Shown here piece by piece: positions 24,343 to 50,121 of a stretch of 64,000 nucleotides of DNA. The position numbers and the translations under genes are program-made. The DNA is from Deltaproteobacteria bacterium RIFCSPHIGHO2_01_FULL_43_49 (GTDB lineage: Bacteria > UBA10199 > SPLOWO2-01-44-7). The notes beneath the pieces were generated by a model that had not been told where the DNA came from, made no database searches, and saw nothing but the letters and a program-made list of their open reading frames with translations. The stretch lies in the NCBI GenBank assembly GCA_001798075.1, contig MGRG01000005.1:1148-65147 (forward strand). Direction: 5' to 3'. Positions within the stretch are counted from its first letter, which is position 1, and every line of letters starts with the position of its first letter.

Positions 24343-24780
24343 ATGCAACGTGGTTTTATTGTCTTGCTTCTTATATGTGTTGCGGGTTGCAGTAGCTATT
24401 TTACCCCCTATCACTCTGAAACAGCCCCCTCTCTCGAGAGTGGGATTTTGCTTGCGGGAACAATCATCATTGATTCAAAACTTCATAAAAAAATCCAACC
24501 AAGCGACACCCTTTATATCATTGCTAAAAAGGGAGATGGAATGCCTCCTTTGGCAGTCAAAAAAATGGCCGTCGGGGCATTTCCCCTAAAATTTGAGTTG
24601 GGGTCTCAGGATATCATGATGCACGGGGCCTCTTTAGAAGGGGATGTTATTCTAGTTGCCCGCATTGACCAGGACGGGATGGCTGGCCCTCCACAAAAGG
24701 GAGATCTAGAGGGGAGAACAGCAAAGCCGATTTCTATCGGTGACCAATCTATTGAAATAAAAATCGATAAAAGTTTTTAA
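24343..24780 (+). CDS. hypothetical lipoprotein
   Basis: The product has a signal peptide with a lipobox, LLICVAGCSS. Confidence 0.5.
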   Translation: MQRGFIVLLLICVAGCSSYFTPYHSETAPSLESGILLAGTIIIDSKLHKKIQPSDTLYIIAKKGDGMPPLAVKKMAVGAFPLKFELGSQDIMMHGASLEGDVILVARIDQDGMAGPPQKGDLEGRTAKPISIGDQSIEIKIDKSF

Positions 24781-26126
24781 TTCCCCAATTCATACACTAT
24801 CCACTCCGAAAAGGTTTCCGGACCTCGATGTTTTGGGAGATCTTCATCCCAAAGGGCAAATGAGGCATAACCCAATTGGGGAATGGGGGCATCCTCATTT
24901 TCTGCCGGTCGGAGCGTCCTTCTAAAAATCACATGCCAACTCCCCTGATAATATACCCCTTTGCCGGTCACATTTTGTCTCATCAAATCTTGAGGTTTCA
25001 ACTGTCCGACACCACCTGCATTGAAGTCTTTGAAGGAACCCGCCTTCCATTCCCAAATGTTTACTTTTTTGGAGGCACTTCCCATGCCAAGATAAGGTAA
25101 CTCGATAGGATTGGTTATTGTATCCATTGGGAGCTGAATCGCGGCGGCGTCACTTTGATTAGGATCCACATTCATCCGATCATCTTCCCACTGGATATAG
25201 AACGCAATCTCTTTGTCATTATGCAGGGCTTTTATGGTAAGCCATTCCGTCGCTTCGGGTTCATGCCATAGATGTTTTAGAAAAACGGGGATGCTGGAAG
25301 TTTTTTCCCATGCCTCATCTTCATAATCTAAAGGAATTTCTCCGTTTATTTTGGTAACGGGGAGCAAATTCCTTTTTGGACTGGAAGGATCATATCCCTC
25401 CGGGAGGGGCCTTTGAATAGATTTTAGGTAATGGACGAGTGACCACATCTGTTCTTTTGAAAAGGTGTGTTCATAGCCAGGCATCGGCGTCCCGGGAATT
25501 CCTATCATGAGGGTGCGGTAAATATCCCTGGTGGTATTTCCCCATTTCAAAGGGCCACGAGTCAAATCCCTTGGCGCAATCCTGTCTCCCCAAACATCTT
25601 TTAAAACAATAGCTCCCGGTCCGTCTCCTTTTCCTTGAAGACCGTGGCAAGCGACACAACCGCTTTTTTCGTAAAGTTCCCGTCCCGACTGAATCGATTC
25701 GGGCGTCTTCTTGGGCTCTTCAGGGGTGTCCACAGAAGGACCCGCTTTCTCATTGGCCAATCTTGGATTGAAGGATTTTAAGTATGACAAAATTGATCGC
25801 CAATCCTCCATGCTCAGCAAGTCCCAGCCGGGCATTGATGTGCCGGGGATCCCAAGTTTCATGGTCTGCAACAAATCGAGATCGGCAGGAACGGCCCCCC
25901 TTGTCCTGCGGTATTTAAAGATGCCTGAAGTAAAATCCCTCGGCTTTGGCCATAAAAATTCGGCGATAGGCCCCTTGCCGTCTCCTTTGGAACCGTGGCA
26001 TGAAGCACAATGAACTTCATAAAGATGTTTTCCCTGAGTTGTTGAAACCTCTCGGCTTGTGTCTCTGCAAGCTCTTTGCTGGCAAGAGAGTGATAGAGCA
26101 AGCAAAATAAAAAAAACTCTTTTCAC
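24777..26126 (-). CDS. dihaem cytochrome c with a C-terminal ~230 aa domain of unclear family
   Basis: Two class-I cytochrome c motifs are present, CASCHGSKGDG and CVACHGLQGKGDG, each followed by the Met-containing GIPGTxMPG motif. The gene is the last in the Rieske/cytochrome b operon. Confidence 0.7.
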   Translation of the reverse strand: MKRVFFILLALSLSCQQRACRDTSREVSTTQGKHLYEVHCASCHGSKGDGKGPIAEFLWPKPRDFTSGIFKYRRTRGAVPADLDLLQTMKLGIPGTSMPGWDLLSMEDWRSILSYLKSFNPRLANEKAGPSVDTPEEPKKTPESIQSGRELYEKSGCVACHGLQGKGDGPGAIVLKDVWGDRIAPRDLTRGPLKWGNTTRDIYRTLMIGIPGTPMPGYEHTFSKEQMWSLVHYLKSIQRPLPEGYDPSSPKRNLLPVTKINGEIPLDYEDEAWEKTSSIPVFLKHLWHEPEATEWLTIKALHNDKEIAFYIQWEDDRMNVDPNQSDAAAIQLPMDTITNPIELPYLGMGSASKKVNIWEWKAGSFKDFNAGGVGQLKPQDLMRQNVTGKGVYYQGSWHVIFRRTLRPAENEDAPIPQLGYASFALWDEDLPKHRGPETFSEWIVYELGN

Positions 26127-33834: not shown

Positions 33835-35552
33835 ACTTGAAACCAGTTGAGAAAAAAATTTCTTGGTGGCGAAGAGCTCTTTATATAATAGGGGTAGACA
33901 CGACTGGCCCAAGTCGTTGGCATGTCCAGCTAAAACCCAGATTTTTTGCCATTCAAGTTTCGATCTTGGGAGTGGTCTTGCTCGCCTTACTCGGGGTCGC
34001 CAAATATTCGGAGAGTCCTTCGTTTTGCAACTCCTGTCATATCATGGAGCCTTACTATAACGCCTGGAAAACCTCGAAACACAACTTCGTGGCCTGTGTC
34101 GAATGTCACTACCCACCAGGCTCCCCTCAGACCGTTCTTTGGAAAAAATTCCAGGCCCTCTCCCAGGTGGTCAAATATGTGACGAGAACTTATTCTTCCA
34201 AACCCTTTGCCGAGATTGAAGATGCCTCTTGCCTTCGCTCGGGTTGTCACTCAACGAGACTTCTTCAAGGAAAAGTGGTTTCTGAGAGGGGAATTAAGTT
34301 TGATCACACTGCTCATATCACAGAGATAAGGCGCGGCAGACAATTGAGATGTGTTTCTTGCCATTCTCAGATTGTGGTCGGAAAACATGTCGAGGTGACT
34401 TATGACACATGTTATCTCTGCCATTTCAAAGGGCGTGGAAAAGGGAGAGACTTTCAACCACTAGGTGGTTGTTTGGGTTGCCACGATCTTCCGACAAAGA
34501 CGTTCCAAATTGGAAATATGGCCTACAATCATAAAGATTTTGTAACGAAGCAAGGGATTGCCTGTCAGAATTGTCATCTGGATGTGGTTTGGGGTGAGGG
34601 CGATGCCTTGCAAGATCGTTGTTTTACTTGCCACAATCAACCTGAGAAATTGGCCCGTTACAATGATATCCCTTTTATTCACGAAAACCATGTCACCAAA
34701 CACAATGTTGCCTGCTTTCATTGTCACCAGGAAATCCGTCATGTAATCGGCGAGGAACCTCTTGGGTCATCCAAGTTGCCCAACTTGAATGCCACTCCCC
34801 CACCCAGCCCGCCCGTTTCTGAAACGCCTGGACCCCATCCCACACTAGCCTTTGATTGTTCTTTCTGCCACCAAGGTAAACATCTAGGCCAACTCGAGAT
34901 GTATTCCGGAAAAGTGGGATCGCTGGGGCTCCCAGAAATTCCAAGCCCCATGTATGTTGCCAATGTTGATTGCATCGGTTGTCATTATCAAGAAATGATT
35001 TTGGACCAAAAAGAAAAGGAATTTCGTGGCACAACATTCAAAGCTTCGGAAGAAGCCTGTATCAAATGCCATGGAGAAAAGTTTAAGGGAATCTGGGAAG
35101 AGACTAAATTAGAGTTACAAATGACACTTTCAAAGATCGAAGAAAAACTAAAGATGGTTCAGAGGGGGGTAAAAACAGAGCAAATCAATCAGGTTGAACG
35201 CTGGATTCACTTTATTCATGCCGCCAAGGGAGAGCATAATATTTATTTGACCTCTTTTATCTTGCGTCAGGCGGATCAAATTCTCTCTGAAGCCCTAGAA
35301 AAGCTCAAAGTAAAAGCCCCTGATCTTTCATCACTTCCCCTTTTGTCGGGTGGTTTTTGTGCAACCATGTGCCATTCAAAAATGGGGGTTCAAGTTCCGC
35401 CGGAAACGGTTCAGGCCTTTGGAAAAACGATGCCCCACAAAATGCACACCGAAACGATGAGCTGTGTGACCTGTCATGATCTGGGTGGCCATAAAGAAGT
35501 CCCATTAAAAAAGGAGATCAAACCCTTCTGCGAAGGCTGTCATGCCCTATAA
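33798..35552 (+). CDS. NapC/NirT/NrfH-family membrane-anchored multihaem cytochrome c (~15 haems)
   Basis: An N-terminal TM helix is followed by CNSCHIM...CVECH, the NapC/NrfH start with a Met ligand. There are thirteen canonical CxxCH motifs plus CLRSGCH (CX4CH) and CATMCH (CX3CH). Confidence 0.7.
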   Translation: MVDGTKKTTSKINLKPVEKKISWWRRALYIIGVDTTGPSRWHVQLKPRFFAIQVSILGVVLLALLGVAKYSESPSFCNSCHIMEPYYNAWKTSKHNFVACVECHYPPGSPQTVLWKKFQALSQVVKYVTRTYSSKPFAEIEDASCLRSGCHSTRLLQGKVVSERGIKFDHTAHITEIRRGRQLRCVSCHSQIVVGKHVEVTYDTCYLCHFKGRGKGRDFQPLGGCLGCHDLPTKTFQIGNMAYNHKDFVTKQGIACQNCHLDVVWGEGDALQDRCFTCHNQPEKLARYNDIPFIHENHVTKHNVACFHCHQEIRHVIGEEPLGSSKLPNLNATPPPSPPVSETPGPHPTLAFDCSFCHQGKHLGQLEMYSGKVGSLGLPEIPSPMYVANVDCIGCHYQEMILDQKEKEFRGTTFKASEEACIKCHGEKFKGIWEETKLELQMTLSKIEEKLKMVQRGVKTEQINQVERWIHFIHAAKGEHNIYLTSFILRQADQILSEALEKLKVKAPDLSSLPLLSGGFCATMCHSKMGVQVPPETVQAFGKTMPHKMHTETMSCVTCHDLGGHKEVPLKKEIKPFCEGCHAL

Positions 35553-35559
35553 GTTTTCC

Positions 35560-36729
35560 TTAAGAGGCAAGTTGGCGCTCCTTTTCGAACGGCGGCAGCA
35601 CTTTAACAAGGAAATAGAGTAAAACAAAAGGGAGGGCAAAAATCAGCATGGCCGGAAGGATCCCTTCTTTTGCCAGAAATTCGGGGTGAAAATCTCTTAG
35701 CCCCCTTAGGCTCTTCGACATGATTTGTCCGCCGATGACGACATTCCAACGCATGGCAAAGACCTGAATGAGCAAAAGGATTGAGGCAAAGAAGGTAAGA
35801 CTGTTTCGAACTTTGGGGTGCAAGTATTTATCCAGCAAAACGGTCACCATCAAAAGGATAAAGGGAATGAGAGATCCCAAAACCATTTGGACCGAGATGA
35901 ATGAGAAGGCAAGTTTGGTGGTAAGAAGCGGGGCGATGATCTCCCAAGCCTCGTTTCTTTCATAACTCAACGTAATGATTTCCAAGAGTTCCAATGTCAC
36001 GGTTTGGATCTGGAAATACCAGAGCCACCTGGCCAACCCTCGAACACAATCTTGACTCACCTCTGTGCCACGAAAAATCGCCATGAGTTGATAAAGGATG
36101 ATCAGAAGGGCAATCCCCGAGACAACGGCTGAAAACAAAAAAATGATCGGCATCAAAGGAGTGGACCACCAAGGGTTTGCCTTGACGGCGCCAAAGAGAA
36201 AACCGACATAGCCGTGCAAAAGACAAGCGGAAGGAATTCCAATCGTTGCCAAAATGGTGATTACTTTATGATCTGTCTTGATGGCTTCGTCACTAACATC
36301 ATAAACTCCCAGTGTAAGAATACGATAAGGCAGCGCTCGAATTCCTTTATAGGTGGTTGCAAAATGGACAATGTCTTTTCTAAAAACCAACCAGATTTCT
36401 AAAATCAGGACAACAAGATAACTGGTGTAGAGAATCCCAAATCCGGCCATGGCGGAGGAAAAGTTGGGGGTAATCATAATATTGAGAGCTCTCTCCGGAT
36501 GCCCCAGGTGATTAAGCAGTGGCAGTGTTGCGCACAAAAGGAAGGCCAGTGAAGTCAAAAGTGCGAAACGTCCGATCGGTTGATACTCTTTTTTTTGAAA
36601 AACATGATAGAAAGAGGAAACAATGAAAGCACCGGCAACAAGACCGGTGATGTAGGGATACATGACAATCATAATGCTCCAATGGATGTGAATGTCGTTT
36701 GGAAAAGTATATTGCAGGTATGGGAGCAT
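35560..36729 (-). CDS. NrfD/PsrC-family polytopic membrane quinone-interacting subunit
   Basis: The 389 aa product has eight to ten TM helices, with a size and hydrophobicity pattern like NrfD/PsrC/ActC. It is co-oriented and contiguous with the FeS subunit gene. Confidence 0.75.
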   Translation of the reverse strand: MLPYLQYTFPNDIHIHWSIMIVMYPYITGLVAGAFIVSSFYHVFQKKEYQPIGRFALLTSLAFLLCATLPLLNHLGHPERALNIMITPNFSSAMAGFGILYTSYLVVLILEIWLVFRKDIVHFATTYKGIRALPYRILTLGVYDVSDEAIKTDHKVITILATIGIPSACLLHGYVGFLFGAVKANPWWSTPLMPIIFLFSAVVSGIALLIILYQLMAIFRGTEVSQDCVRGLARWLWYFQIQTVTLELLEIITLSYERNEAWEIIAPLLTTKLAFSFISVQMVLGSLIPFILLMVTVLLDKYLHPKVRNSLTFFASILLLIQVFAMRWNVVIGGQIMSKSLRGLRDFHPEFLAKEGILPAMLIFALPFVLLYFLVKVLPPFEKERQLAS

Positions 36730-37553
36730 TAACGTGTCTCCTTATCGAAACCTAAATAGTAGCATCTCGGTTTTGTCAGTTTTTCGGGTTGTAGGACTGC
36801 AATATGTTCTTCCGTTACAATTTTGCGGATAGGGTCACGTTCGTTATTCATGTCGCCGAACAATCTGGCCCCTGTGGGACAGGCCTCCACGCAAGCCGGC
36901 TTTAAACCTTTTGTGATTCGATGATAACACCAGGTACATTTTTCAGCCGTTCTGGTGAGAGGATTAATAAAGCGACTTCCGAAAGGACAGGCTTGGACAC
37001 AATAGCCGCAACCGATGCAGCGCTTGCTGTCGACCAAAACCGCTCCGTCTTGGTTGGTATAAGAAGCCCCAACGGGACAGACCTGTGAGCAAGGGGTATT
37101 GGCACAGTGGTTGCAAAGCTTTGGAACAAAATAAGATTTGGAGACGTTGAATCCAGGGGTCATCGGTTTGAATCCGTTGATTCCTCCATCAGGAGATTCA
37201 ACAATGACTTCTCCTTTTTCCGAGACCACATAACGTTCGATCCAAGTTCTGAAAAAATGATCGGGAACTTTATTCTCCAGGGCGCAAGCCTTGACACACA
37301 TTCCACAGCCGATGCATTTATTGATGTCGACGACATAGGCAAAGAGGTGTTCGCTCGGATCATAGTTTGTCCCTGGAATCATTCCCAAGGCTTGTTCCGC
37401 CGCTTTTAATGGAGAAACGCGCATCAGACCTACAAAGAGAGCCACACTGGGAGCCATCTTGAGCGCGGAGGTTAAAAATTCGCGCCTCGAAATCGCATCC
37501 TCATCTTCTATTTTTCCCCCATTGGACTGTGGGGCTGATGGCAACTTAAGCAT
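36729..37553 (-). CDS. Tat-exported 4Fe-4S ferredoxin-type subunit (PsrB/NrfC/DmsB-like)
   Basis: The product has a twin-arginine motif SRREFLTS and four Cys clusters (CIGCGMCVKAC, CNHCANTPCSQVCP, CIGCGYCVQACP, CTWC...CVEACP). Confidence 0.85.
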   Translation of the reverse strand: MLKLPSAPQSNGGKIEDEDAISRREFLTSALKMAPSVALFVGLMRVSPLKAAEQALGMIPGTNYDPSEHLFAYVVDINKCIGCGMCVKACALENKVPDHFFRTWIERYVVSEKGEVIVESPDGGINGFKPMTPGFNVSKSYFVPKLCNHCANTPCSQVCPVGASYTNQDGAVLVDSKRCIGCGYCVQACPFGSRFINPLTRTAEKCTWCYHRITKGLKPACVEACPTGARLFGDMNNERDPIRKIVTEEHIAVLQPEKLTKPRCYYLGFDKETR

Positions 37554-37990
37554 ATTTCTTCATTCTCCAAGTTTTTGTCTTTCGAGACGACATGTTCATG
37601 AAAATCGATTTGTGGAAATGTTTTGGGCTTCGCCTCCAATTTTTGGTGACAACGGGCACAAAGGGCAAACGTTTTATGGATGGGCATGGGCTGAACGCCA
37701 TCCTCTGTCACATGCTGGGTTAGAGGGGCATGGCAATCTTGACAAGGAACGGCTGCATGTCTGCCAGCCAATTTTATTTTCCAAACATCGTCATGACATT
37801 CCGCACACGAGTTTGGATTGCCATGCACAATAGGCAAGCTGGCCTGCTCTGCCAAGTTCTCACCCCGGAAATGCCCATACAACCCAAAACTTTTGGGAAT
37901 CAAAAGCGCCCTAACGACAAAAAAGAGAAAGATGGCTGCACCCAAGAGAATAGCCGCACGGATCAAATGTCGGTGGTGTCCTTTGCCCAT
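37508..37990 (-). CDS. membrane-anchored tetrahaem cytochrome c (NrfH/NapC-like or DsrJ-like)
   Basis: An N-terminal TM helix is followed by four CxxCH motifs (CAECH, CQDCH, CARCH, CLSCH) in 160 aa. The gene's 3' end overlaps the start of the FeS-subunit gene. Confidence 0.7.
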   Translation of the reverse strand: MGKGHHRHLIRAAILLGAAIFLFFVVRALLIPKSFGLYGHFRGENLAEQASLPIVHGNPNSCAECHDDVWKIKLAGRHAAVPCQDCHAPLTQHVTEDGVQPMPIHKTFALCARCHQKLEAKPKTFPQIDFHEHVVSKDKNLENEEICLSCHQPHSPMGEK

Positions 37991-39742: not shown

Positions 39743-40120
39743 TCAGGTCCGTCGGGACCATTGAGAAATTTTTAGGGCGAGAAAACCCCCTCCTCCGATG
39801 AGGAGAACAACTGGCAAAACCCAAACCAGCAAGTTAAAACCTTGGGGTTTGGGTGAAAGCAAAATCCATTCACCATAGCGATCCTCAAAATATTTTAGAA
39901 TTTGCTCTTCGCTCTCACCTTTCCCAAGTTTTTCGCGAATCACCTTCATCATATCTTGGGCCAGTTCCGCCGGCGACTCTGAGATTGGAATTCCCCGACA
40001 AACCGGACAGCGGAGTTGGTCGGCAATTTGGCGTGCCTCCTGGTTTAGGCTTAAATTTGAGGAAACACCCCAGGCAAGCGTGGAAACAAGGAAAAACAAG
40101 AGAGACCTGATTAAAATCAT
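39743..40120 (-). CDS. ccmH: cytochrome c-type biogenesis protein CcmH/NrfF
   Basis: The product has a signal peptide, the LRCPVCRG motif (CcmH LRCxxC) and a C-terminal TM anchor. Confidence 0.75.
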   Translation of the reverse strand: MILIRSLLFFLVSTLAWGVSSNLSLNQEARQIADQLRCPVCRGIPISESPAELAQDMMKVIREKLGKGESEEQILKYFEDRYGEWILLSPKPQGFNLLVWVLPVVLLIGGGGFLALKISQWSRRT

Positions 40121-40164: not shown

Positions 40165-42669
40165 ATGTCTAATTTAGGCCCAGGCCGCAAGGTTTTTTTT
40201 GTGTTGGTTGGGCTTTTTTGTTTCCTCATTTTTTCCTTTGGTTGTGGCGAGAGAAAACCAAGTACCAAGTCTCAGACTCAGCAAGGAGCTGGGGGAGAAG
40301 GAACTCCTGGTGAGGGTCTTGCCCCTCCCGCTATTTTTCCTCATTCCGAAAACTGGGCAAGTCCTATCGATCACGGTGTGTGGACGGCACAAAATGGTTC
40401 TGAAGTTTGCTTGAACTGTCATAAAATAGAATCGGCTCAGGTAGAAACGCCCCCGACTTGTCACTCTTGCCACAAACTTTTTCCCCACCCAGATACTTGG
40501 GTCAAAAAAGAAAATCATGGGTCTTTTGTTTTGACCAATGGAAAAGGAAGCTGTGCGACCCAGTGCCATGGCACCGATCTCAATGGCGGCCTTTCAAAAC
40601 TTGCTTGTGATTCGTGCCACGAAATCTATCCTCACAAACAAACCTGGATAGTTCCTGCGGAACATGGAGCGGCTGCTGAGGGAAATGGAAAACTTAACTG
40701 CAAAGGATGTCATGGTGATGATTTTCGCGGTGGTCTCAGTGGAAAAAGTTGCTACGAGTGTCACGAGTTATTTCCCCACGAGAAGGGCTGGTATGATCCA
40801 CAGAGGGTACAACAAAAACATCGCGATTTTGTGATGGCAAACGGAACAACCAGTTGTGCCACCCAATGCCACGGAACCGATTTGGGCGGGGGACTTTCGG
40901 GAAGGTCCTGTAATGAATGTCACCAATGGCTCCCCTGGTTCCCTCATCCTGAAGGTTGGAAGGATTATGAAGGCCACGGAACCTATGTTTTGCAAACCTT
41001 GGGTAATGACAAAACCAGTTGTAAGTTATGTCATGGAAACGATTTTCTAGGTGGGTTTTCGGGAGTTTCCTGTTCCAATTCCAGTTGTCATTCTAATTAT
41101 CCCCATGACCCTGCCACTTGGGGCCAGGCGGCAAACCATGGTCCTCCGGCTTACGGAGCAGGCAAAACCAGTTGCGCAACGGCCAATTGTCATGGGACAG
41201 TCTTTCAAGGGAGCCAATATCAAGTTAGTCCAGGCAATCCTCTAGCACCCTCTTGCTTTAATTCTGGTTGCCACGCCGATTTTCCCCACATCGATCCAAA
41301 GTGGATGACCCCTGACAAAACAAACAATGCAGTAACGAGGGATGAAAGTTTTCATGGGGATCGATTCATCAGACAAGTGCAAAGGGGAGTTGTCACCTGT
41401 ACCGGCTGCCATGGGATTAACTACGACCGCGTCGTTGGGGGATACCAGTGCACGGCTTGCCATGCAGATGGTATCACCCACAAGATCATAGGAACAGCAA
41501 CTTGGTCTAGCGGATTAGGGCATGGAAAGTTTTTTTCAAATCGTGGTTTCCTCGCAATAGATACTTCTGTCCGTTGCTGGGACTGTCATGGAAGCCCTGT
41601 TATTTTTGACAAAACACAAACAAGGCCATTTTTAGAAAACCAATCCGATTGTTATCGCTGTCACTTTGCCTATCCTCATAAAGGCTATCAGGATCAGGAT
41701 TTACTTACATGGGAGCCTGTCAATATCAATGTTTGTGGTACCAGAAATTCCGCAAATGCGCCGGCCCACTATTTTTACCTATTCGAAAATCCTTTAAGCG
41801 TGGATGTTAGTAATACCTGCGGCGGCGGGACAAATGGGTCCTGTCATTCCAATGGTTATCGAGCCTATCGTATCGAAGGTTTCTCCGGTTTTGCTCCTTG
41901 TAATTATTGTCATGGACAAAGCAACCCGCCTCCTCCACTGCCAGATTGTGCCGGACCCCCTCCATCGAACCTCCAAAATCCAGGTGCCCCGACAATTACA
42001 AGTATCTATCCGGCGCGTGATGAAACAAGTGTCTTAGTTGGATCGGCTATAAGAATACAATTTAGCGAGGCAATGGAGACGGCAAGCATTACTCAAACAG
42101 GGACATTCGTTCTCAGGCAAGTTGGGCGACCCGATTCCATCATGGCAAATATAGTTTGCAGTAACGATTGGTGCCGACAAGCAAGTTTAGTCCCTGCAGC
42201 ACAACTGCTTCGTGACACTTTATATGAAGCCACGGTGACAACTGCCACCAAAGACTGGGGAGGGACCGCTATGGCAGCTGATTATAGTTGGACTTTCAGG
42301 ACAGAGTTGCCAGATACGACTCCCCCTCTCATTGTTTCCACTATCCCAGCAAGCGGAGCAGTGGACGTGCCTCGGGGAAGATATATTTACGTCACTTTCA
42401 ATGAACTCGTAAATCAATTCTTCATCAGGGACTCCATCAAGGTAAAGAATTTAACAACTGGAGGGGCCATTGCAGGGGCAACAGGTTGTTCAAGTGCAGT
42501 AGTCAGTAATGGTTGCACAACAGTACGTTTTCAACGAAACACCACGGCAAGTTACGATACGGAGTATGAAGTGAGGGTTTTGACAATTGTGAGAGATTTG
42601 TCAGGCAACCCCCTCCAATCAGAGCATCGCTGGACTTTCAGAACAGCAGAAGCACCACCCGGACCTTAA
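40165..42669 (+). CDS. lipoprotein multihaem cytochrome c with repeated dihaem modules (non-canonical CX3CH/CX4CH) and C-terminal Ig-like domains; probably cell-surface
   Basis: The lipobox is FSFGCGE. The repeating unit is [C-x2-CH]-x2-[FY]PH-x3-W-x~6-HG-x~8-NG-x3-CATQCHGTDL-GGLS. There are about 16-18 haem motifs, including CATQCH twice and CSNSSCH, CATANCH and CFNSGCH. The last ~220 aa resemble bacterial Ig-like beta-sandwich domains (TITSIYPARDETSVLVGSAIRIQFSEAM..., LIVSTIPASGAVDVPRGRYIYVTFNELV...). Confidence 0.7.
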   Translation: MSNLGPGRKVFFVLVGLFCFLIFSFGCGERKPSTKSQTQQGAGGEGTPGEGLAPPAIFPHSENWASPIDHGVWTAQNGSEVCLNCHKIESAQVETPPTCHSCHKLFPHPDTWVKKENHGSFVLTNGKGSCATQCHGTDLNGGLSKLACDSCHEIYPHKQTWIVPAEHGAAAEGNGKLNCKGCHGDDFRGGLSGKSCYECHELFPHEKGWYDPQRVQQKHRDFVMANGTTSCATQCHGTDLGGGLSGRSCNECHQWLPWFPHPEGWKDYEGHGTYVLQTLGNDKTSCKLCHGNDFLGGFSGVSCSNSSCHSNYPHDPATWGQAANHGPPAYGAGKTSCATANCHGTVFQGSQYQVSPGNPLAPSCFNSGCHADFPHIDPKWMTPDKTNNAVTRDESFHGDRFIRQVQRGVVTCTGCHGINYDRVVGGYQCTACHADGITHKIIGTATWSSGLGHGKFFSNRGFLAIDTSVRCWDCHGSPVIFDKTQTRPFLENQSDCYRCHFAYPHKGYQDQDLLTWEPVNINVCGTRNSANAPAHYFYLFENPLSVDVSNTCGGGTNGSCHSNGYRAYRIEGFSGFAPCNYCHGQSNPPPPLPDCAGPPPSNLQNPGAPTITSIYPARDETSVLVGSAIRIQFSEAMETASITQTGTFVLRQVGRPDSIMANIVCSNDWCRQASLVPAAQLLRDTLYEATVTTATKDWGGTAMAADYSWTFRTELPDTTPPLIVSTIPASGAVDVPRGRYIYVTFNELVNQFFIRDSIKVKNLTTGGAIAGATGCSSAVVSNGCTTVRFQRNTTASYDTEYEVRVLTIVRDLSGNPLQSEHRWTFRTAEAPPGP

Positions 42670-42736
42670 CTGATCCAAATCATGTCCTCATAACTTCCCA
42701 TTTCTGCTATTTTAACCCTCAGATTTTGGAGAGAGA

Positions 42737-44332
42737 ATGGGGGAAAAAAGGCCTTGGGGTTTTTTAAAGATTGCTCCTTTTGGATGCCTTTGTCTGACCC
42801 TGGCCTGCGGCGAAATAAAACCAATCACAGACGCAGCAGCACAACTAGAAGAAGAAAGTAATGCTACCCCCAAAGTAGAAAGCCTCTTACCCCCATCTGA
42901 AACGATATTTCCCCATTCAAAAAGCTGGTCGGATCCCGTGGTACATGGGGCATGGACCATACAAAACGACTCCGATGTTTGTTTTCAATGCCACCAAAAA
43001 GATTTAGGGGGGATGGGAGGAGCCCCCGCCTGTCATTCCTGTCATCCACTTTTCCCCCATCCTGATGGGTGGGTTAAAAAAGAAAATCATGGTTCTTGGG
43101 TGTCTGCCAACGGAAAGGAAAATTGCGCTACTCAGTGTCACGGCACCGACTTCAAAGGGGGGCTTTCAAAAGTCTCGTGTGAATCCTGTCATGCGATCTA
43201 TCCCCACATGGTGACCTGGACCAATCCTGTAGAGCATGGGGCGGTTGCGAAAGGAGACGGCAAAGCGATTTGTATGAATTGCCACGGTAACACAAGCTGT
43301 TATGCGTGCCACGAAAAATACCCCCACGAAACGGGGTGGGCCGACCCTTTAAAACATGGGAAGGATGTCACTCAAAATGGCACAAACGGTTGTGCCACCC
43401 AGTGTCACGGAACCAATCTGAAGGGAGGACTGTCAGAGGTCTCCTGCGATAATTGTCATGCGAGTTATCCTCATCTTGATAACTGGAGGGATCCCACTCA
43501 ACACGGAACGGCGGCCTTAGGAAATGGTAAAACCAGTTGCGGGACAGCCAATTGTCACGGGAGCGACTTTAAGGGAAGCCTAAAAGCCCCATCCTGTTTT
43601 TCTTGTCACGCCGATTTTCCTCATACTAGTTCTCGTTGGATGACACTGAAGCCGACGACGAGTAAAACTTCTGATCGCGATGAAGGTTTCCACGGAGACC
43701 GATTCATACGGATGCAAATGTCGGGAAAGACGGGTGCTTGCGCCGAATGTCACGGTGCAAACTATGACCGTTTGATCGGTACCGGCCAATGTACGAATTG
43801 TCATCCCAATGGTGTTACCCATCGAAATACAACCCAAACAACCTGGTCTTCTTTTACGCACGGGCAGTATTACACAAGTTTCTTCAATTCCATTTCAACG
43901 AATGCCAACTGCAAGGATTGTCACGGAGGCTTTGTCGATTTCACAGACACCCAGACAAAACTCTCTTTGGAAAGTCAGTCGGGCTGCTACCGCTGCCACT
44001 GGGCTTATCCTCATAGGGCCTATGAAACTCCGATCTGGCATGAGATTTGGGAGCCCGTCGTCGCGAATAACTGTGGTGGAATGGCAAATTCCGGACACCT
44101 CCTCTATCTGACGGGGAGTTCACTCTTCACGGATGAACAAGGAAGGCGACCGACCAGCACGAACGATCCGATCAGCATCGGCGCCATCAAACATACCTGC
44201 GGCGGGTCGGCCGGTTCCTGCCATTTCAATGGTCTTCGCTCCTATAACACGCAAGCAACCTCGGCATTGTGCGGGCAATACTGTCATAGTTCAACAATGC
44301 CTTCCATCCCATCGCGGCCCCCTTGCCCTTAA
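42737..44332 (+). CDS. lipoprotein multihaem cytochrome c, paralog of the previous gene (same dihaem module repeats)
   Basis: The lipobox is LTLACGE, and the same modules recur (CFQCH...CHSCHPLFPHPDGWVKKENHGSWVSANGKENCATQCHGTDFKGGLSKVSCESCHAIYPH...). CX4CH variants CGTANCH and CGGSAGSCH are present; the 531 aa product has no Ig-like tail. Confidence 0.7.
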   Translation: MGEKRPWGFLKIAPFGCLCLTLACGEIKPITDAAAQLEEESNATPKVESLLPPSETIFPHSKSWSDPVVHGAWTIQNDSDVCFQCHQKDLGGMGGAPACHSCHPLFPHPDGWVKKENHGSWVSANGKENCATQCHGTDFKGGLSKVSCESCHAIYPHMVTWTNPVEHGAVAKGDGKAICMNCHGNTSCYACHEKYPHETGWADPLKHGKDVTQNGTNGCATQCHGTNLKGGLSEVSCDNCHASYPHLDNWRDPTQHGTAALGNGKTSCGTANCHGSDFKGSLKAPSCFSCHADFPHTSSRWMTLKPTTSKTSDRDEGFHGDRFIRMQMSGKTGACAECHGANYDRLIGTGQCTNCHPNGVTHRNTTQTTWSSFTHGQYYTSFFNSISTNANCKDCHGGFVDFTDTQTKLSLESQSGCYRCHWAYPHRAYETPIWHEIWEPVVANNCGGMANSGHLLYLTGSSLFTDEQGRRPTSTNDPISIGAIKHTCGGSAGSCHFNGLRSYNTQATSALCGQYCHSSTMPSIPSRPPCP

Positions 44333-44338
44333 CACTTT

Positions 44339-45622
44339 ATGTTTAGTTGTCAGGTCACAGATTTTTATGGTATTTCTCACAAGGTGAAAATATTGACTTT
44401 GATCCTTCCCTTTCTCCTTGCTTCCTCAATAGTGAATGCGGGGGAGTTTCATTTAAACGCAACTAGTCTTGGCCAAGTTCGCAAAAATGCGAGACTCCAA
44501 AAAGAAATCCCTGTCAACGGATACCTGGGCATGGCCTTTGCCCAGCCAACATGGGAGCTTTCGGGCGAAACAAATATGCGTGTCATTCGAGATTTCAAAA
44601 GAAAACTAGACGACTACGATCTCTACCAGGCGGTGATTCATTACAAGCCCACAGAGAAACTTCGGATCGATTCAGGTCGCCAGATTGTCAACCAGGGGTT
44701 TTCCCTTGAGATGCTCGACGGTGTCCAAACGACTATTATGCCCTGGGATCATGTCGATTTTACCGTTTATTCAGGAATTCCCCGAAGTGTTGAAAGAGAG
44801 GATTTTAACAAAAATGATGGTTTGCTGACCGGTATCTCTATTGGGATGAAAAATGTTGCCAGGACAAATTTTTCACTACACGCTGCGTGGCGCAAAAACG
44901 ACATTTATTTCATCGATCCAAAACAAAACGATGAGGCCCGTGTCGGCGCCAATTTTTCACATCAGTTTGCTGTCTCCACAACACCAATGTTGTATGGAAC
45001 CTTTGAATACGACGCGATGGGCAAGGTGATTGATACGGGTGTGGCGGGTTTTGATATTTATCCCTCCAAGCGAATTGCACTCAACATGGAGTTCAACTAT
45101 TTCAACATCAGTCGGGAAACAGATCGATTGACCATTCAAAGACTCTTCACTCAGGGAAGACAAATTGGTGGCCGCTTTTCCTCCACATGGACACTCGTTC
45201 CAAACTATTTGGATCTTGTGGAAAGCTATACTTATCAAAATGTAGAGGTAGTCAAAGGGGATCGCCGCCATGGACACATCGTCGATGCGGCCCTGCAACT
45301 CTCCCTGGATAACATTGGACTCCATATAGAACCAGGCTATTATTTTTCAAAAAGTTTTGGCGGTCGCTTACACGGGGGAAGAATTTCCATTCATGAACAA
45401 TTCACCGATAAGTTTTATACCGAAGTGGGATTTGATTTCACAAAATACAAAAAAATTACCAATGACAATGACAATGCCTATTCAGGCGTAGGTTGGGCCG
45501 GCTATGAAGTAGCCAAAGGCTTGACGATATCTGGAGGTTTTGAATACAACAAAAATAATTCATTTAACAAAGATGCTCGTGGCTCTTTTAGGCTAGATTA
45601 TCAATTTGACCATGGAAGCTAA
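44339..45622 (+). CDS. putative outer-membrane beta-barrel (porin-like) protein, candidate porin of a porin-cytochrome complex
   Basis: The signal peptide is KILTLILPFLLASSIVNA; the true start may be GTG 44384. The product is rich in alternating aromatic/polar residues and short loops, with the C-terminal ...FRLDYQFDHGS. The family assignment is inference. Confidence 0.45.
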   Translation: MFSCQVTDFYGISHKVKILTLILPFLLASSIVNAGEFHLNATSLGQVRKNARLQKEIPVNGYLGMAFAQPTWELSGETNMRVIRDFKRKLDDYDLYQAVIHYKPTEKLRIDSGRQIVNQGFSLEMLDGVQTTIMPWDHVDFTVYSGIPRSVEREDFNKNDGLLTGISIGMKNVARTNFSLHAAWRKNDIYFIDPKQNDEARVGANFSHQFAVSTTPMLYGTFEYDAMGKVIDTGVAGFDIYPSKRIALNMEFNYFNISRETDRLTIQRLFTQGRQIGGRFSSTWTLVPNYLDLVESYTYQNVEVVKGDRRHGHIVDAALQLSLDNIGLHIEPGYYFSKSFGGRLHGGRISIHEQFTDKFYTEVGFDFTKYKKITNDNDNAYSGVGWAGYEVAKGLTISGGFEYNKNNSFNKDARGSFRLDYQFDHGS

Positions 45623-46172
45623 AAAAATTTTCATAGGGGTGGTGAGCCTTCTTCTGGTGGCAAGCTCCGTTGCGGCAAAGGAAAAAGTAAAACATCCCTT
45701 TGACCTTTTTGATCATGAGATGCACACGGGGCTTTTTGAGACGGTTGAATTTCAATGTGAGAATTGTCACAAGGATCAGGAAGATTTTGCAAACAGGGAA
45801 AAGATGAATCGCCTGGGGTGTCACACCTGCCACAACAATCCCAATCCGCCACTGCCCGGAACTCAGGAGTGCACCGTTTGCCATATCGGCGGCAAATTTC
45901 CAAAACCCCAAAGTCATAAGGCGGGCTGGATTGCCAAACATGAGTCCTATGCCAAGCTCAATCCACAAGAATGCGCTCAATGTCATAGCAATGCGATGTT
46001 TTGCGTCGATTGCCATAAAAGAAGGGATACCATTCAACAGAAGGGGCATCGCCGTAACTTTAGATTTTTCCACTCGATCGAAGCGAGGGCCAATCCCAGA
46101 AAGTGTGATGCCTGTCATACCGTAAACTATTGTCAGCAGTGTCATGCCGGAGGAGGCAACTCAAAGAGATGA
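45606..46172 (+). CDS. periplasmic heptahaem cytochrome c
   Basis: The product has a signal peptide and seven CxxCH motifs in 188 aa (CENCH, CHTCH, CTVCH, CAQCH, CVDCH, CDACH, CQQCH). Confidence 0.75.
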   Translation: MTMEAKKIFIGVVSLLLVASSVAAKEKVKHPFDLFDHEMHTGLFETVEFQCENCHKDQEDFANREKMNRLGCHTCHNNPNPPLPGTQECTVCHIGGKFPKPQSHKAGWIAKHESYAKLNPQECAQCHSNAMFCVDCHKRRDTIQQKGHRRNFRFFHSIEARANPRKCDACHTVNYCQQCHAGGGNSKR

Positions 46173-46477
46173 AATCGTATTTGGCTTTACCCATTTTGCT
46201 TATTTCTGTAGGCTTTCTAACTTCCTGTGGTGGCGCCGCTCTGAATGAAGGGGAAAACTACGGAAACATCCTGAATACCTCCCAAGGTTTGACACTGACT
46301 CAAGCGGAACACCAAATCGGCTGGGGACAATCAGAGTGTACGATATGCCACAATTTAGAAAATATTCATCTGGTGGACCGAACGGGCATCACCGACATCA
46401 AGGCAGTTCATAACCAAGCATTGAGCGAAGGAATTTCTGGGTGTGCCGCCTGCCATGGAACAAACGGTGCCCCTTAA
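46169..46477 (+). CDS. dihaem cytochrome c lipoprotein
   Basis: The start is at internal Met (MKSYLALPILLISVGFLTSCGG, with a lipobox). CTICH and CAACH motifs are present. Confidence 0.6.
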   Translation: MKSYLALPILLISVGFLTSCGGAALNEGENYGNILNTSQGLTLTQAEHQIGWGQSECTICHNLENIHLVDRTGITDIKAVHNQALSEGISGCAACHGTNGAP

Positions 46478-47172
46478 ATTCCATGGCCATTTGTGTGACG
46501 AACAACATAAATACCTTCTGCAATTTCTTTATCTAGGGCAATTTCTGTTTCTTCAATTTTGAGGACATAAGAAGGGCGTTTTTGCAACAGATGAAGGGTG
46601 GCGCCCGGAATAACACCGAGCCCCGATAACCTTTCCAAGAGCGAGTGGTATTTGGGGGCAATGAAAATGATGCGATAGTTTTCTCCAACCTCTTCTAGGC
46701 TCAAGGGGGTCACCAGAGGTCTCACTTCGTTAACAAAAAGACGACAGCAATCACCGGGAGGAATAGGTCTTCCATGTGGACAGGACGGTGGGTGGCCCAA
46801 AAAAGAGCAAATTCCCTCTACTGCCTCAGGGGTGAGAACCTTTTCATGCTCCAAACGACAGGCCTGCGCCCTCACCGCTTCTTCAGAAAGATTGAAAACA
46901 ACCGCGAACAGGCGTTCGGCAAGACGATTTCGACGAATCAAAGAACGAGCCTGATTTTCACCTTTGGTGGCCAGTTTCAAACATCCATTCTTTTGCTGAA
47001 CGAGTCCTTCTTTGACGAGCTCCGAAGTAGCCCTCTCAACTTCCAAAGGGTCTACCTGAGAGAGACAATGATCCGGCTCTTCTTTCCCCACCTCTTGATT
47101 GAGCCAGGCCCTCACCAAGATGTGATCCTTGATTTCATCGAAACCCAGATCTTCTGTTGTTTCCTGTAACAT
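46474..47172 (-). CDS. DtxR/IdeR/MntR-family metal-dependent transcriptional regulator with C-terminal FeoA-like domain
   Basis: The product has a winged-helix N-terminus and metal-site motifs ACRLEHE and CPHGRPIP, as in DtxR. The C-terminal ~70 aa SH3-like segment (VRPLVTPLSLEEVGENYRIIFIAP...) resembles FeoA. Confidence 0.75.
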   Translation of the reverse strand: MLQETTEDLGFDEIKDHILVRAWLNQEVGKEEPDHCLSQVDPLEVERATSELVKEGLVQQKNGCLKLATKGENQARSLIRRNRLAERLFAVVFNLSEEAVRAQACRLEHEKVLTPEAVEGICSFLGHPPSCPHGRPIPPGDCCRLFVNEVRPLVTPLSLEEVGENYRIIFIAPKYHSLLERLSGLGVIPGATLHLLQKRPSYVLKIEETEIALDKEIAEGIYVVRHTNGHGI

Positions 47173-47174
47173 AA

Positions 47175-47420
47175 CTATTTCACCTTCTTAAAAACTTTTT
47201 GAAACCAATTGACAATCCTAGATTCGGCAACAAATTCATAACTGCAATTGGGGCATTTGAGCATGGAACATCCGCTGACCATCGCACAGCCACCACAGGC
47301 AGCCTCCCCTGCGTTGAACTGGAACCCACACAAAGGGCAGTCTTGCACCTTGGCTTTTGTCTGCTGAACTCCAACACTCGGCAATTGAAGTGCATCCATT
47401 ATAATCCTTTCAAAACCCAA
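47175..47420 (-). CDS. small cysteine-rich (zinc-ribbon-like) protein between feoB and the regulator
   Basis: The 81 aa product has the pattern CPLCG...CGGC...C...CPNC. I cannot assign a family. Confidence 0.4.
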   Translation of the reverse strand: MGFERIIMDALQLPSVGVQQTKAKVQDCPLCGFQFNAGEAACGGCAMVSGCSMLKCPNCSYEFVAESRIVNWFQKVFKKVK

Positions 47421-49402
47421 TTCAAAACACCCCCGACTAAAAAAGCAAAAGGGAAAACGAAAAAAACCATCCGCGCTGCTACCTTGCCACCATGCTCTTT
47501 AACCATCATAAAGACATTGGCAACACAAGGGACAAACAATGTAATGACGACAAGTGCCACCAGGGCCTGAACAACAGAGAGCTGGCCGTGGCTATACATA
47601 TCAAAAAAACCGGTTGCCCCGTAATCACGTCTCAAAAAACCGATCAAAAAAGCATTCGCTGCCTGAGCCGGCAATCCCAAAATGGAAACGACAAGAGGGG
47701 CCGCCAGCTTTTGAATCCGAGTCAAAAGATGGACTGCATCAAGAAGAAACAAAATGAAGGTCCCAAGCAAGAAAAGAGGTATGGCTTCCTTCACGTACCA
47801 TTCCAAATGAGAAAGGGTTTTCTTGGCGACATTGGAAAATTTAGGAACACGCAACGGGGGAATTTCCATTACAAAGGCATTTCCCTCCCCCGCAATGATC
47901 TTGTTCGACGCGAATCCCACAAAAAACATCACGCCCAGCATGACGAAGAGCCAGACCCAAAAGGCCCACATGGGCATTGTCCCAAACATCCCCAATAAAA
48001 CTCCCAATTGAGCAGAACAGGGGACAGCAAGTGCCAGCAGGAGAGTCACAATGAGACGCTGTTTTTTCGTCTCAAGAATCCTTGTCGTCAATGTTGCCAT
48101 CGTATCGCACCCAAGCCCTAAAACCATTGGCAAAACTGCCTTGCCATTGAGCCCCATCCCTTTGAAGAGACGATTGACCATTACTGCAAGTCTTGGAAGA
48201 TAACCGGAATCTTCCATCAAACTAAAGGCAATGAAAAATGTGGTGACAATGGGAAGGACAATCGCAAAACCGTAAGAAAGCCCCATCACCACCAACCCAT
48301 AGGGCCCGACAAAACAATCATGGAGTATTTTGAAAATCGGGTTGGCCTCGCCACTCAAAACATAACTGCCGACTAGAAATCCCTCCTCCACATTGTGGGC
48401 ATGAGAAAATGGCAATAGTTTGTCGAAAAACCAGATAAAAGCCGGTGAAATATATTTTGCAAAGATGCCATTTTCAATAAAGTCGACCGCAGTACCCGCA
48501 CCGAATTTTCCAACAAAGAGATAAACCAACTCCAAAATGCCGGCCAAGACGATCATGCCTGCAATGGGATGCATTGTCCAAGCAGATAGCCATGCCCCCA
48601 CAGCGCGTCCTCTTTTTTGCGTGGTCATCACCTTTTCCAATAGGGATTGGGTCAACGTACTTCTTTCTCGATTCATCAGAAAACTGACCGGCTCCGCAAA
48701 ATAGGCGGCCACTTGCCGGCACTGTTCTTCAATAATGTTTTGAACATTGTTTGACAGTTGAGATTTAAAGCGAGTGCTAATGTGTCTATCCCCGGCAAGC
48801 AGCATACTGGCCACCGACAGACGGCCGTGTATTTCTCCAGGCAGTGCACCCGTAATCGTTTTCAACGCCTTTGCAAAAATGGTCGAATATCCCCATTTAA
48901 ATGTGCAGGGCCTTGCATCTTTTATTCGTTCTTTTAATAGCGGGAGTCCAATTTTTCGGATCGCAACGGTTGTGACGACGGGAATACCCAAAACGGATTC
49001 CAGTTTTTTAGCGTCAATTTTAATGCCGGCACGGGCTGCCTCATCACACATATTGATGACCAAAACCATCGGAACACCCATTTCTTGGAGCTGCAAAGTA
49101 AGCGGTAATGCCCGCATCAGATTTTTAGCATCGGCAATCTGGATGACCAGACCCTCATTTTGAATCAGCAGATCACGAGTTACACACTCATCTTCAGACA
49201 TTGGGATTAAAGAATTGATGCCGGGTGTATCAACAACCTGATATTTTTTATCATCGATGAGCGCTTCTCCCTGAGACAAAGCGACAGTTGTACCCGGGTA
49301 ATTGGAGACTGTGGCGTAGGTCCCTGTGAGGTAGCCGAAGATGACACTTTTGCCCACATTGGGATTCCCCACCAAAAAGATCTTTGTTGAACTATTTACC
49401 AT
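47399..49402 (-). CDS. feoB: ferrous iron transport protein B
   Basis: The N-terminal G-protein domain (IFLVGNPNVGKSVIFGYLTG...VVDTPG) is followed by a polytopic membrane domain, 667 aa in total. Confidence 0.9.
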   Translation of the reverse strand: MVNSSTKIFLVGNPNVGKSVIFGYLTGTYATVSNYPGTTVALSQGEALIDDKKYQVVDTPGINSLIPMSEDECVTRDLLIQNEGLVIQIADAKNLMRALPLTLQLQEMGVPMVLVINMCDEAARAGIKIDAKKLESVLGIPVVTTVAIRKIGLPLLKERIKDARPCTFKWGYSTIFAKALKTITGALPGEIHGRLSVASMLLAGDRHISTRFKSQLSNNVQNIIEEQCRQVAAYFAEPVSFLMNRERSTLTQSLLEKVMTTQKRGRAVGAWLSAWTMHPIAGMIVLAGILELVYLFVGKFGAGTAVDFIENGIFAKYISPAFIWFFDKLLPFSHAHNVEEGFLVGSYVLSGEANPIFKILHDCFVGPYGLVVMGLSYGFAIVLPIVTTFFIAFSLMEDSGYLPRLAVMVNRLFKGMGLNGKAVLPMVLGLGCDTMATLTTRILETKKQRLIVTLLLALAVPCSAQLGVLLGMFGTMPMWAFWVWLFVMLGVMFFVGFASNKIIAGEGNAFVMEIPPLRVPKFSNVAKKTLSHLEWYVKEAIPLFLLGTFILFLLDAVHLLTRIQKLAAPLVVSILGLPAQAANAFLIGFLRRDYGATGFFDMYSHGQLSVVQALVALVVITLFVPCVANVFMMVKEHGGKVAARMVFFVFPFAFLVGGVLNWVLKGL

Positions 49403-49518: not shown

Positions 49519-50121
49519 TTACTGATTTTGTTTGATTTTTTCTATCTGGTCTTTAAGATATTCTTTTGTGAGGACACCTGAGAATTTGTTTTGGATGAGC
49601 CCTTTGGAATCTATAAAAAAGGTCTCTGGGACACCTCCCACCCCATAGTCAATGGCCATTTGGCTTTTGGGATCGAAAAGAACGAGAAAAGGCTCTCCCA
49701 ACTCTTTTACAAATTGCACGACGGTTTCCTTTTTATCCTGATAAACTACTCCTAAAAATTTTACCCCCTCTTTTTCGTAAATTGAGCGTACCTCCTTAAG
49801 AACGGGGTGTTCATAAAAACAGGGGCCGCACCAGGTTGCCCAAAAGTTGATGACGACAGGCGAGCCTTTCAAAGAAGGAAGATCGATTTTTTTACCATCG
49901 AGTGTCTCCAGTAAAAAATCGGGGGCCATTTTTCCAACCATCGCTGATGGAAGCTCTCTGGGATTTCTGGTCAGTCCAAAGGCTAAGAGATAAACGATCG
50001 GGGCAACAATCAATATAAAAAGCAGCCAGCGTTTTAACACGGGGGCTCCCCCTCTTTTTTCTTCATTCCAGCGGAAATGAGAACTCCCAACACAATGACC
50101 CCACCACCACCCCAAATCCAA
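49519..50121 (-). CDS. ccmG: thiol:disulfide interchange protein CcmG/DsbE (thioredoxin-like)
   Basis: The product has a TM anchor followed by VVINFWATWCGPC, the CcmG WCxxC motif. The true start probably lies downstream of the ORF-track start, because this gene overlaps the ccmF 3' end. Confidence 0.75.
   Translation of the reverse strand: MDLGWWWGHCVGSSHFRWNEEKRGGAPVLKRWLLFILIVAPIVYLLAFGLTRNPRELPSAMVGKMAPDFLLETLDGKKIDLPSLKGSPVVINFWATWCGPCFYEHPVLKEVRSIYEKEGVKFLGVVYQDKKETVVQFVKELGEPFLVLFDPKSQMAIDYGVGGVPETFFIDSKGLIQNKFSGVLTKEYLKDQIEKIKQNQ

Follow-up and report, generated by a model that had tools for sequence, protein, structure and literature searches.

A probable porin-cytochrome conduit with a new family of modular multihaem cytochromes in a groundwater bacterial lineage

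Introduction

Electron exchange between Gram-negative bacteria and minerals, electrodes or partner cells takes place through porin-cytochrome conduits, of which only a few have been studied, namely those of Shewanella, Geobacter and some Fe(II) oxidisers. In the porin-cytochrome (Pcc) systems, the porins have 18-22 strands and the periplasmic cytochromes, whose gene always adjoins that of the porin, carry 5-14 typical haems and no atypical ones (Shi et al. 2014, PMC4245776). Their outer-membrane cytochromes vary extremely, show no co-evolution with the porin pair and in some cases contain the CX3-4CH spacing, which is reported as a proven covalent haem-binding motif (PMC4245776). The Pcc systems that have been characterised work in reduction (PMC4245776; Liu et al. 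2014, PMC4282303). In the PCC3 systems, the periplasmic cytochrome has 21-27 haems, and among the components is an inner-membrane protein that is conserved (He et al. 2017, PMC5566968; PMC9900912). Here, a gene cluster is analyzed that is located at positions 40165-46477 of a 64,000-nucleotide stretch (the window) of contig MGRG01000005.1, which belongs to the metagenome-assembled genome (MAG) Deltaproteobacteria bacterium RIFCSPHIGHO2_01_FULL_43_49. The cluster probably specifies a Pcc-type electron conduit across the outer membrane together with large terminal cytochromes. A preliminary description of the window had pointed out its likeness to such complexes and had not recognised the repeated module of its two large cytochromes as a named family. 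In the literature on the lineage (UBA10199, FG-2, RIFCSPLOWO2) no description of this cluster was found, and the Rifle bioanode paper is silent on it. A multihaem selenoenzyme described in a 2026 paper proved unrelated to this locus.

Results

Five open reading frames (ORFs) are tightly packed on the forward strand at the coordinates assigned to them in the preliminary description. The first three are separated by 67 nt and 6 nt, and the last three overlap (C427/D188 and D188/E115). A834 (40165..42669) is a lipoprotein multihaem cytochrome with 17 CX2-4CH sites and one C-X7-CH motif, and its paralog B531 (42737..44332) is a further such lipoprotein with 15 CX2-4CH sites and one C-X6-CH motif, and it lacks an Ig-like tail. 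The porin of the proposed conduit is C427 (44339..45622), a predicted plug-less 22-strand outer-membrane beta-barrel. It is followed by D188 (45606..46172), a Sec-exported heptahaem cytochrome c with 7 CXXCH motifs, and by E115 (46130..46477), a small dihaem lipoprotein with 2 CXXCH motifs. These two small cytochromes had been described correctly by type, while their starts required revision to the likely start codons ATG 45612 (D188) and ATG 46169 (E115); the latter yields a protein of ~102 aa and an ATGA overlap with the D188 stop. The lipoboxes previously claimed for the 834 aa and 531 aa paralogs were identified by eye, using the PROSITE lipobox rule, as FSFGC and LTLAC, and their cysteine is at least 90% conserved among homologs. 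Together with E115 (lipobox FLTSC), the cluster contains three lipobox cytochromes, which are candidates for an outer-membrane or surface location. A scan for promoters and terminators returned nothing exceeding chance. The window proteins are 100% identical to those of the MAG "Deltaproteobacteria bacterium RIFCSPLOWO2_12_FULL_44_12". The genes A834 to E115 probably constitute one five-gene operon for a Pcc-type trans-outer-membrane conduit plus large terminal cytochromes.

The assignment to the Pcc systems is made because of the barrel model, the recurrent pairing of barrel and heptahaem cytochrome, and homology to Group III-like clusters. C427 is free of haem motifs and has 53 homologs of 404-438 aa that lack a Pfam domain. 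In its AlphaFold2 (AF2) model, built from a 42-sequence alignment, 22 strands form a plug-less barrel at a pLDDT of 87.6, and the matching folds are 22-strand barrels and MtrB. The proposal that the 427 aa protein is an outer-membrane beta-barrel, with which the preliminary description had said its interpretation would stand or fall, is therefore upheld, and the number of strands lies within the 18-22 of the Pcc porins. D188, which overlaps the porin stop, fits the adjacent periplasmic cytochrome of 5-14 typical haems, as its 7 haems are packed into ~165 mature residues behind a signal peptide of the signal-peptidase-I type and no atypical motif is present.

A porin profile was scanned against GTDB species genomes and returned 20 loci, of which 19 had their downstream flank scanned. 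In all 19, distributed over two phyla, a gene with 7 CXXCH motifs directly follows the porin, and the same holds for two further loci (L024 and L025). The window's own groundwater lineage, labelled "Deltaproteobacteria", accounts for six of the loci, and Desulfurobacteriaceae, Thermovibrio or unlabelled MAGs of the same layout account for 14. C427 can be aligned over its full length with the Thermovibrio/Desulfurobacteriaceae porins (23% identity, E 2e-19), and D188 shares 41% identity (E 1e-30) with the heptahaem cytochrome adjoining the Aquificota porin. The fourth gene of the Aquificota clusters, with 6 CX2CH, one CX3CH and one CX5CH motif and a C-terminal membrane helix, fits the published Dester_0351/Theam_0871 of the Group III pcc clusters (PMC4245776). 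Both the OmbB-OmaB-OmcB system of Geobacter sulfurreducens and Group III (Thermovibrio ammonificans, Desulfurobacterium thermolithotrophum, Denitrovibrio) share with this locus a barrel of 18-22 strands (22 in C427), an adjacent periplasmic cytochrome of 5-14 haems with CXXCH motifs only (7 in D188), lipoprotein multihaem cytochromes within the cluster, some with CX3-4CH, and extra genes for inner-membrane or periplasmic cytochromes nearby. The likeness to porin-cytochrome complexes noticed in the preliminary description is thus borne out by homology and by recurrent pairing.

The locus also differs from these systems. Porin identity is low even towards the Aquificota clade and the Geobacter porins were not reached by the profile; the heptahaem cytochrome of the Aquificota clusters is a lipoprotein and D188 is not; the dihaem lipoprotein E115 is an additional conserved component; and A834 and B531 belong to an unrelated family with a regular dihaem module and, in one of them, Ig-like domains. 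The large cytochromes of the Aquificota clusters resemble A834 at the haem-motif level only. In loci L009-L021 (Desulfurobacteriaceae/Thermovibrio), the lipobox-bearing heptahaem protein beside the porin is followed by a second 7-haem protein and then by a membrane-anchored 6+2-haem protein. Within the groundwater lineage, about eight genomes retain one to three large-cytochrome paralogs together with the porin, the heptahaem cytochrome and the dihaem lipoprotein. The E115-type gene follows the heptahaem gene in L001-L007, L024 and L025 (45-67% identity), and E115 itself gives a weak match to MtrC/MtrF domain II/IV (E 0.0014).

Membership of C427 in the MtrB/PioB family was considered and rejected, as no PF11854 match was obtained at E <= 1 and D188 has 7 haems, not 10. 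The solved MtrB structure has 26 strands. The 22 strands of C427 also differ from the 28 trans-membrane motifs predicted for MtrB of the MtrCAB/MtoAB/PioAB systems (Shewanella, Sideroxydans, Rhodopseudomonas; structure 6R2Q; PMC4245776), and a genuine MtrA/MtrB pair is found elsewhere in the window (20239-23363). With PCC3 of Gallionellaceae and other Fe(II) oxidisers the locus shares a porin, a long and apparently linear cytochrome of 10-35 haems (CX2-4CH counted) and surrounding bc complexes; the sole non-lipoprotein cytochrome in the cluster, however, has 7 haems, which sets it apart from PCC3 as described. One could also suppose that C427 is an ordinary solute porin and that the cytochromes act on a soluble substrate as a redox enzyme system of the periplasm, since no family model names them. 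This is highly improbable in view of the strict porin-heptahaem pairing with overlapping genes in two phyla, the 22 strands without plug or constriction domain, and the conserved histidines, which are numerous enough for all-bis-His ligation; moreover, neither a CXXCK or other catalytic-site signature nor a gene for a partner enzyme is present.

The two large cytochromes are related to each other by 40% identity (BLASTP, E 3e-125). A834 contains 12 CXXCH, 2 CX3CH (both CATQCH) and 3 CX4CH motifs (CSNSSCH, CATANCH and CFNSGCH), 17 in total, and B531 contains 11 CXXCH, 3 CX3CH (CATQCH twice and CGQYCH) and one CX4CH motif (CGTANCH), 15 in total. All four CX4CH forms listed in the preliminary description were located, as were the four CATQCH units. 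The spacing between haem sites alternates between 12 and 26 residues, and the aligned units follow the consensus C-X2-4-CH-G-x-[DN]-[FL]-x-GG-[LF]-S-x3-C-X2/4-CH-x2-[FY]PH-x3-W-x4-5-HG-x5-NG-x3. This dihaem module is arranged in tandem in both proteins and measures 48-55 aa. One copy of the "FPH...W...HG" element stands upstream of the first haem site, which suggests that its histidines ligate the haems of the following module.

A834 begins with a signal peptide and lipobox (aa 1-27) and a disordered linker (aa 28-51), which precede the haem domain (aa ~58-583). A Pro-rich linker then leads to two tandem Ig-like domains at the C-terminus (aa ~608-713 and ~720-828; 41986..42648, forward strand), as had been noticed earlier; both belong to Big_5 (PF13205, Pfam E 4.9e-33) and were modelled as beta-sandwiches. 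In the AF2 model of A834 the pLDDT is 83.6 overall and below 50 for residues 28-51. The closest folds to the Ig-like domains include the periplasmic CopC, L,D-transpeptidase Ig domains and alpha-2-macroglobulin, and also S-layer proteins. The Ig-like tail makes A834 a candidate for surface display, at which the preliminary description had hinted. Alternatively, A834 and B531 might be anchored in the inner leaflet of the outer membrane and point into the periplasm, serving as periplasm-spanning wires or electron stores, with only D188, with or without E115, reaching the surface. A lipobox with Gly at +2, a flexible tether of ~25 residues and the periplasmic proteins among the best Ig-like fold matches are in line with such an orientation, and a chain of 17 haems could span a periplasm, a role proposed for the periplasmic cytochromes of PCC3 (PMC9900912). 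This arrangement is nevertheless considered unlikely, because the lipoprotein cytochrome is extracellular in the characterised Pcc and Mtr systems (PMC4245776), S-layer-like Ig domains were matched as well, and the periplasmic role is already filled by the Sec-exported soluble heptahaem cytochrome and a protein with dihaem-c and EB_dh domains encoded nearby (see below).

The atypical haem motifs are conserved by position. A834 has 123 detectable homologs, nearly all of them unnamed metagenome proteins, and most contain CX3CH and/or CX4CH motifs; the unusual spacings are kept in about 90 homologs of 30-55% identity. In a 94-sequence alignment, site 3 is CX3CH in 86 of 90 sequences, site 7 is CX3CH in 66 of 85 and site 11 is CX4CH in 63 of 83. 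The last site is CX3CH in 53 of 87 sequences (A834 itself has CX2CH there), and sites 10 and 12 switch between CX2CH and CX4CH. As these spacings are kept at fixed alignment positions, they must be under selection and sequencing noise is excluded, just as the preliminary description had maintained. Sites 3, 7 and 11 correspond to about every fourth haem, so that the actual repeating unit consists of two modules with four haems. Furthermore, ~36 of the 38 A834 histidines are invariant or at least 90% conserved in a 32-sequence alignment that was counted by hand (the 94-sequence alignment lists fewer). The CX3CH and CX4CH sites of A834 and B531 are putative haem sites.

One more conserved motif had been overlooked in the earlier inventory. 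Near the end of the A834 haem domain (aa 552-561, 41818..41847, forward strand) the motif T-C-GG-x5-C-H (C-X7-CH) is found, in its fuller form T-C-GG-x5-C-H-x-NG-x-RS, and B531 has a C-X6-CH counterpart (aa 488-496, 44198-44224, forward strand). The CGG..CH motif is present in 43 of 121 family members, 38 of which show the X7 spacing, and C-X7-CH occupies the same column in 47 of 84 sequences of the 94-sequence alignment; C552, C560 and H561 of A834 are at least 90% conserved. The motif is a candidate for an additional haem site of a very atypical kind or for a Cys-pair/His site. With haem bound there, A834 would have 18 sites and the 36 conserved histidines would amount to exactly two per haem. 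That all these spacings (CX3CH, CX4CH and CX7CH) are assembly or sequencing errors, or Cys pairs without haem, is hardly credible. The atypical sites are known from sequence, and C-X6/7-CH falls outside the CX3-4CH range stated to bind haem (PMC4245776). On the other hand, the same columns recur in independent assemblies from many sites (at the three frequencies given above), the window protein is 100% identical to a cluster found on 19 contigs, and CX3-4CH is said to bind haem covalently (PMC4245776). For the C-X7-CH site taken by itself, the chance of an error or a non-haem Cys pair is about even.

Comparison with family databases supported the earlier impression that the module belongs to no named family. 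NCBIfam gave zero matches for A834 and only noise for B531, and Pfam gave Big_5 plus marginal generic c7/c3_2 matches. A834 passes the gathering thresholds of PF14522 (27.2 bits vs 24.8) and PF14537 (26.3 vs 25), D188 passes as well (30.7 bits vs 24.8) and B531 remains just under (23.4 vs 25); this places A834 and D188 in the c7/c3_2 group at the generic superfamily level only. PDB sequence searches returned nothing specific, and a PDB profile search returned generic multihaem similarity (16-haem Hmc at E 7e-14, then OmcA, MtrF and MtrA). The class III cytochromes c3, c7 and Hmc share dense bis-His haems with the window proteins, for which this ligation is predicted. The similarity is confined to the density of haem motifs, and neither c3 nor Hmc has a lipid anchor, an Ig-like tail, a CX3CH site or the signature of the module. 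In tetrahaem cytochromes c3, CX4CH alternates with CX2CH. The Geobacter repeat PF09698/TIGR01904 is likewise a repeated multihaem unit with a CX4CH site, but it reads CSNxYCH...CxxCHGxPP and is devoid of the PH...W...HG signature. Full-length A834 and B531 do not match PF09698 or TIGR01904 at E <= 1 in Pfam and NCBIfam. Membership was rejected, as the best isolated A834 unit scored 15.6 bits against a cut-off of 21.7 and covered part of the model only. PF09698 does occur in some distant homologs, and P0097 and P0118 carry both repeats as separate co-occurring units.

A module profile of 48 positions was searched against 1.84 billion representative sequences. It identified 931 proteins at E <= 1e-3, of which 219 reach E <= 1e-30, and a single protein contains as many as 31 module stretches. 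Ten matches were traced to their source, five of them to uncultured organisms and five to unnamed metagenome sequences. Among 91 newly retrieved matches, 60 have a lipobox-like N-terminus, and the number of haem motifs has a median of 17 and a maximum of 68. P0174 (1748 aa, from a Deltaproteobacteria-labelled MAG) and P0190 (1832 aa, an unnamed JGI metagenome sequence) are giant lipoproteins of the same module with 28-31 stretches and 55-68 haem motifs, and P0187 (1063 aa, 33 motifs) comes from a Latescibacteria MAG. By these comparisons, A834 and B531 represent a new, uncharacterised family within the multihaem superfamily that is distinguished by an unusually regular module, position-specific atypical motifs and a candidate C-X7-CH site. 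The novel part of the locus is this large-cytochrome family, and the conduit is of a known kind (Pcc) from a divergent clade. The degree of novelty is smaller than the preliminary description assumed, because CX3-4CH motifs had already been reported in diverse Pcc outer-membrane cytochromes (PMC4245776).

The operon is part of a cytochrome island of ~27 kb (positions 20239-46477). At its far end, an MtrA-like decahaem gene (10 CXXCH) is followed by an MtrB/PioB barrel gene (20239-23363; Pfam E 1e-98 for the barrel). This pair constitutes another outer-membrane conduit, independent of the first, and an MtrC gene does not directly adjoin it. The gene at 24777..26126 (reverse strand; Pfam, conserved synteny) encodes a lipoprotein that combines two class-I cytochrome c domains with an EB_dh (DOMON-like) domain. 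Genes for a Rieske protein, a cytochrome b fused to c-type domains, a NapC-like pentahaem protein, a 19-haem protein with MtrC-like domains, a 10-haem-b561 fusion (MtoC/MtrH-like) and a 15-haem NapC-like protein are found within 24777-37990, and an NrfD-like membrane subunit, a 4Fe-4S protein and a membrane-anchored tetrahaem cytochrome c are encoded at 35560..37990 (reverse strand; Pfam, conserved synteny). In L024 (3790-5145) and L025 (6569-7921) the class-I c/EB_dh gene is located directly upstream of that for the large cytochrome, and in L001 and L006 it adjoins the cluster; its product may serve the conduit as a conserved partner in the periplasm. The NrfD/4Fe-4S/tetrahaem module adjoins the cluster in L003, L004, L006 and L008, with co-directional genes in L004 and L008, and is a candidate quinol/quinone-coupling module.

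On the other side of the operon, a DtxR-family/FeoA-domain regulator, a small Cys-rich protein and FeoB are encoded at 46474..49402 (reverse strand; Pfam). The same trio stands beside the cluster in L001 (17462-20396) and L003, and in L007 (2889-3561) the DtxR and small-protein genes are present; this neighbourhood hints at iron-responsive control or at coupling to Fe(II) uptake. A full ccmABCEFGH set of System I flanks the pcc operon. On the reverse strand, ccmH occupies 39743-40120, and ccmG, F, E, C, B and A are found within 49519-54942, where a rubrerythrin-like gene separates ccmE from ccmF. The pcc operon and dtxR/feoB thus divide the ccm cluster. Further downstream (55412-56659, forward strand), an ORF of 415 aa with a signal peptide and one CXXCH motif showed no Pfam match at E <= 1e-5. 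In L025, the genes for cytochrome bd oxidase subunits I and II are located directly after the conduit operon on the same strand (13470-15888).

The gene neighbourhood bears on the direction of electron flow. Precedent from Pcc systems, together with the NrfD module, speaks for the reduction of acceptors outside the cell, and the class-I cytochromes, the bc complex, the bd oxidase, the nos genes and the MtoAB-like layout favour electron uptake. The same conduit could thus run inward, passing electrons from extracellular Fe(II), reduced minerals or a partner cell to high-potential class-I cytochromes, the bc complex and O2 or N2O reductases, which is a serious possibility even though the odds are somewhat against it. 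It agrees with the conserved class-I c/EB_dh lipoprotein beside the cluster, the NapC-like pentahaem protein, Rieske protein and cytochrome b-c fusion directly after the cluster in L001/L003, the bd oxidase in L025, a nosZ cluster near the L001 locus, and the DtxR and FeoB neighbours. Likewise, an MtrA/MtrB pair without adjacent MtrC, together with a multihaem-b561 fusion, is a layout common in Fe(II) oxidisers (PMC4245776); against uptake speaks that the characterised Pcc systems reduce their acceptors (PMC4245776, PMC4282303). The synteny of the neighbouring module has to be weighed here as well. Where it is co-directional (L004, L008), the NrfD/FeS/tetrahaem module resembles the quinol-oxidising Cbc-type modules of metal reducers, and this also argues against inward flow.

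Discussion

The following mechanism is proposed for the Pcc-type conduit. C427 would form a wide, plug-less 22-strand sheath in the outer membrane, and D188, after export by Sec, would sit within this barrel as an insulated haem wire. E115, a small lipid-anchored adaptor, would cap or extend this wire. The lipid-anchored A834 (17-18 haems) and B531 (15-16 haems) would exchange electrons with the conduit, lengthen the haem chain and possibly meet a mineral or metal partner outside the cell. In each module, the two CXnCH histidines and the invariant histidines of 'PH' and 'HG' would give bis-His haems, and at fixed positions, roughly at every fourth haem, CX3CH or CX4CH would serve in place of CXXCH. 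At its inner end, the chain probably receives electrons from, or delivers them to, the NrfD/FeS/tetrahaem module, the Rieske/cytochrome b-c complex and the dihaem-c/EB_dh lipoprotein, and the haems would be attached by the flanking System I (Ccm) machinery.

Several observations weigh against this interpretation. The family is known from gene sequences, and the present locus comes from a MAG. Neither Pfam nor NCBIfam returned a match for C427, and its identity to the Aquificota porins is the 23% noted above. The mixed porin profile reached two known clades only and no Geobacter or Denitrovibrio proteins, and the link to Group III is a match of taxon and gene content, not of the exact published accessions. 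For A834, the AF2 model was built without haems and has a pTM of 0.44, and its haem domain found no match among the top-listed hits of the fold searches. The Ig-like domains of A834 are as close to periplasmic CopC and L,D-transpeptidase domains as to S-layer domains. Finally, at least P0049 among the distant family members stands alone, without a porin.

A more far-reaching reading, which is put forward with considerable reservation, joins these elements. Lipid-anchored, single-chain haem wires of an uncharacterised class, their length set by the number of modules (from few to 68 motifs), would contain atypical and C-X7-CH sites as true haem attachments that shape packing or potential. Through the 22-strand/heptahaem conduit they would be plugged into a high-potential chain of class-I cytochromes, bc complex, bd/cbb3 oxidases and N2O reductase and would support lithotrophic electron uptake from minerals. 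If true, this would be a physiology not known for this groundwater clade.

The locus adds a compact conduit, composed of a 22-strand barrel and a 7-haem insert, that is common to an uncultured groundwater lineage and hydrothermal Aquificota. Its dihaem module is a regular and extendable building block for very long cytochromes that is absent from family databases and solved structures. The fixed positions of CX3CH, CX4CH and possibly CX7CH offer a natural test set for the limits of Ccm maturation and for the effect of motif spacing on haem geometry. They also suggest that counting haem sites by CXXCH, or even by CX2-4CH, gives too low a number in proteins of this type. Should electrons flow inward, the cluster would point to mineral-based lithotrophy in a widespread and unstudied groundwater clade.

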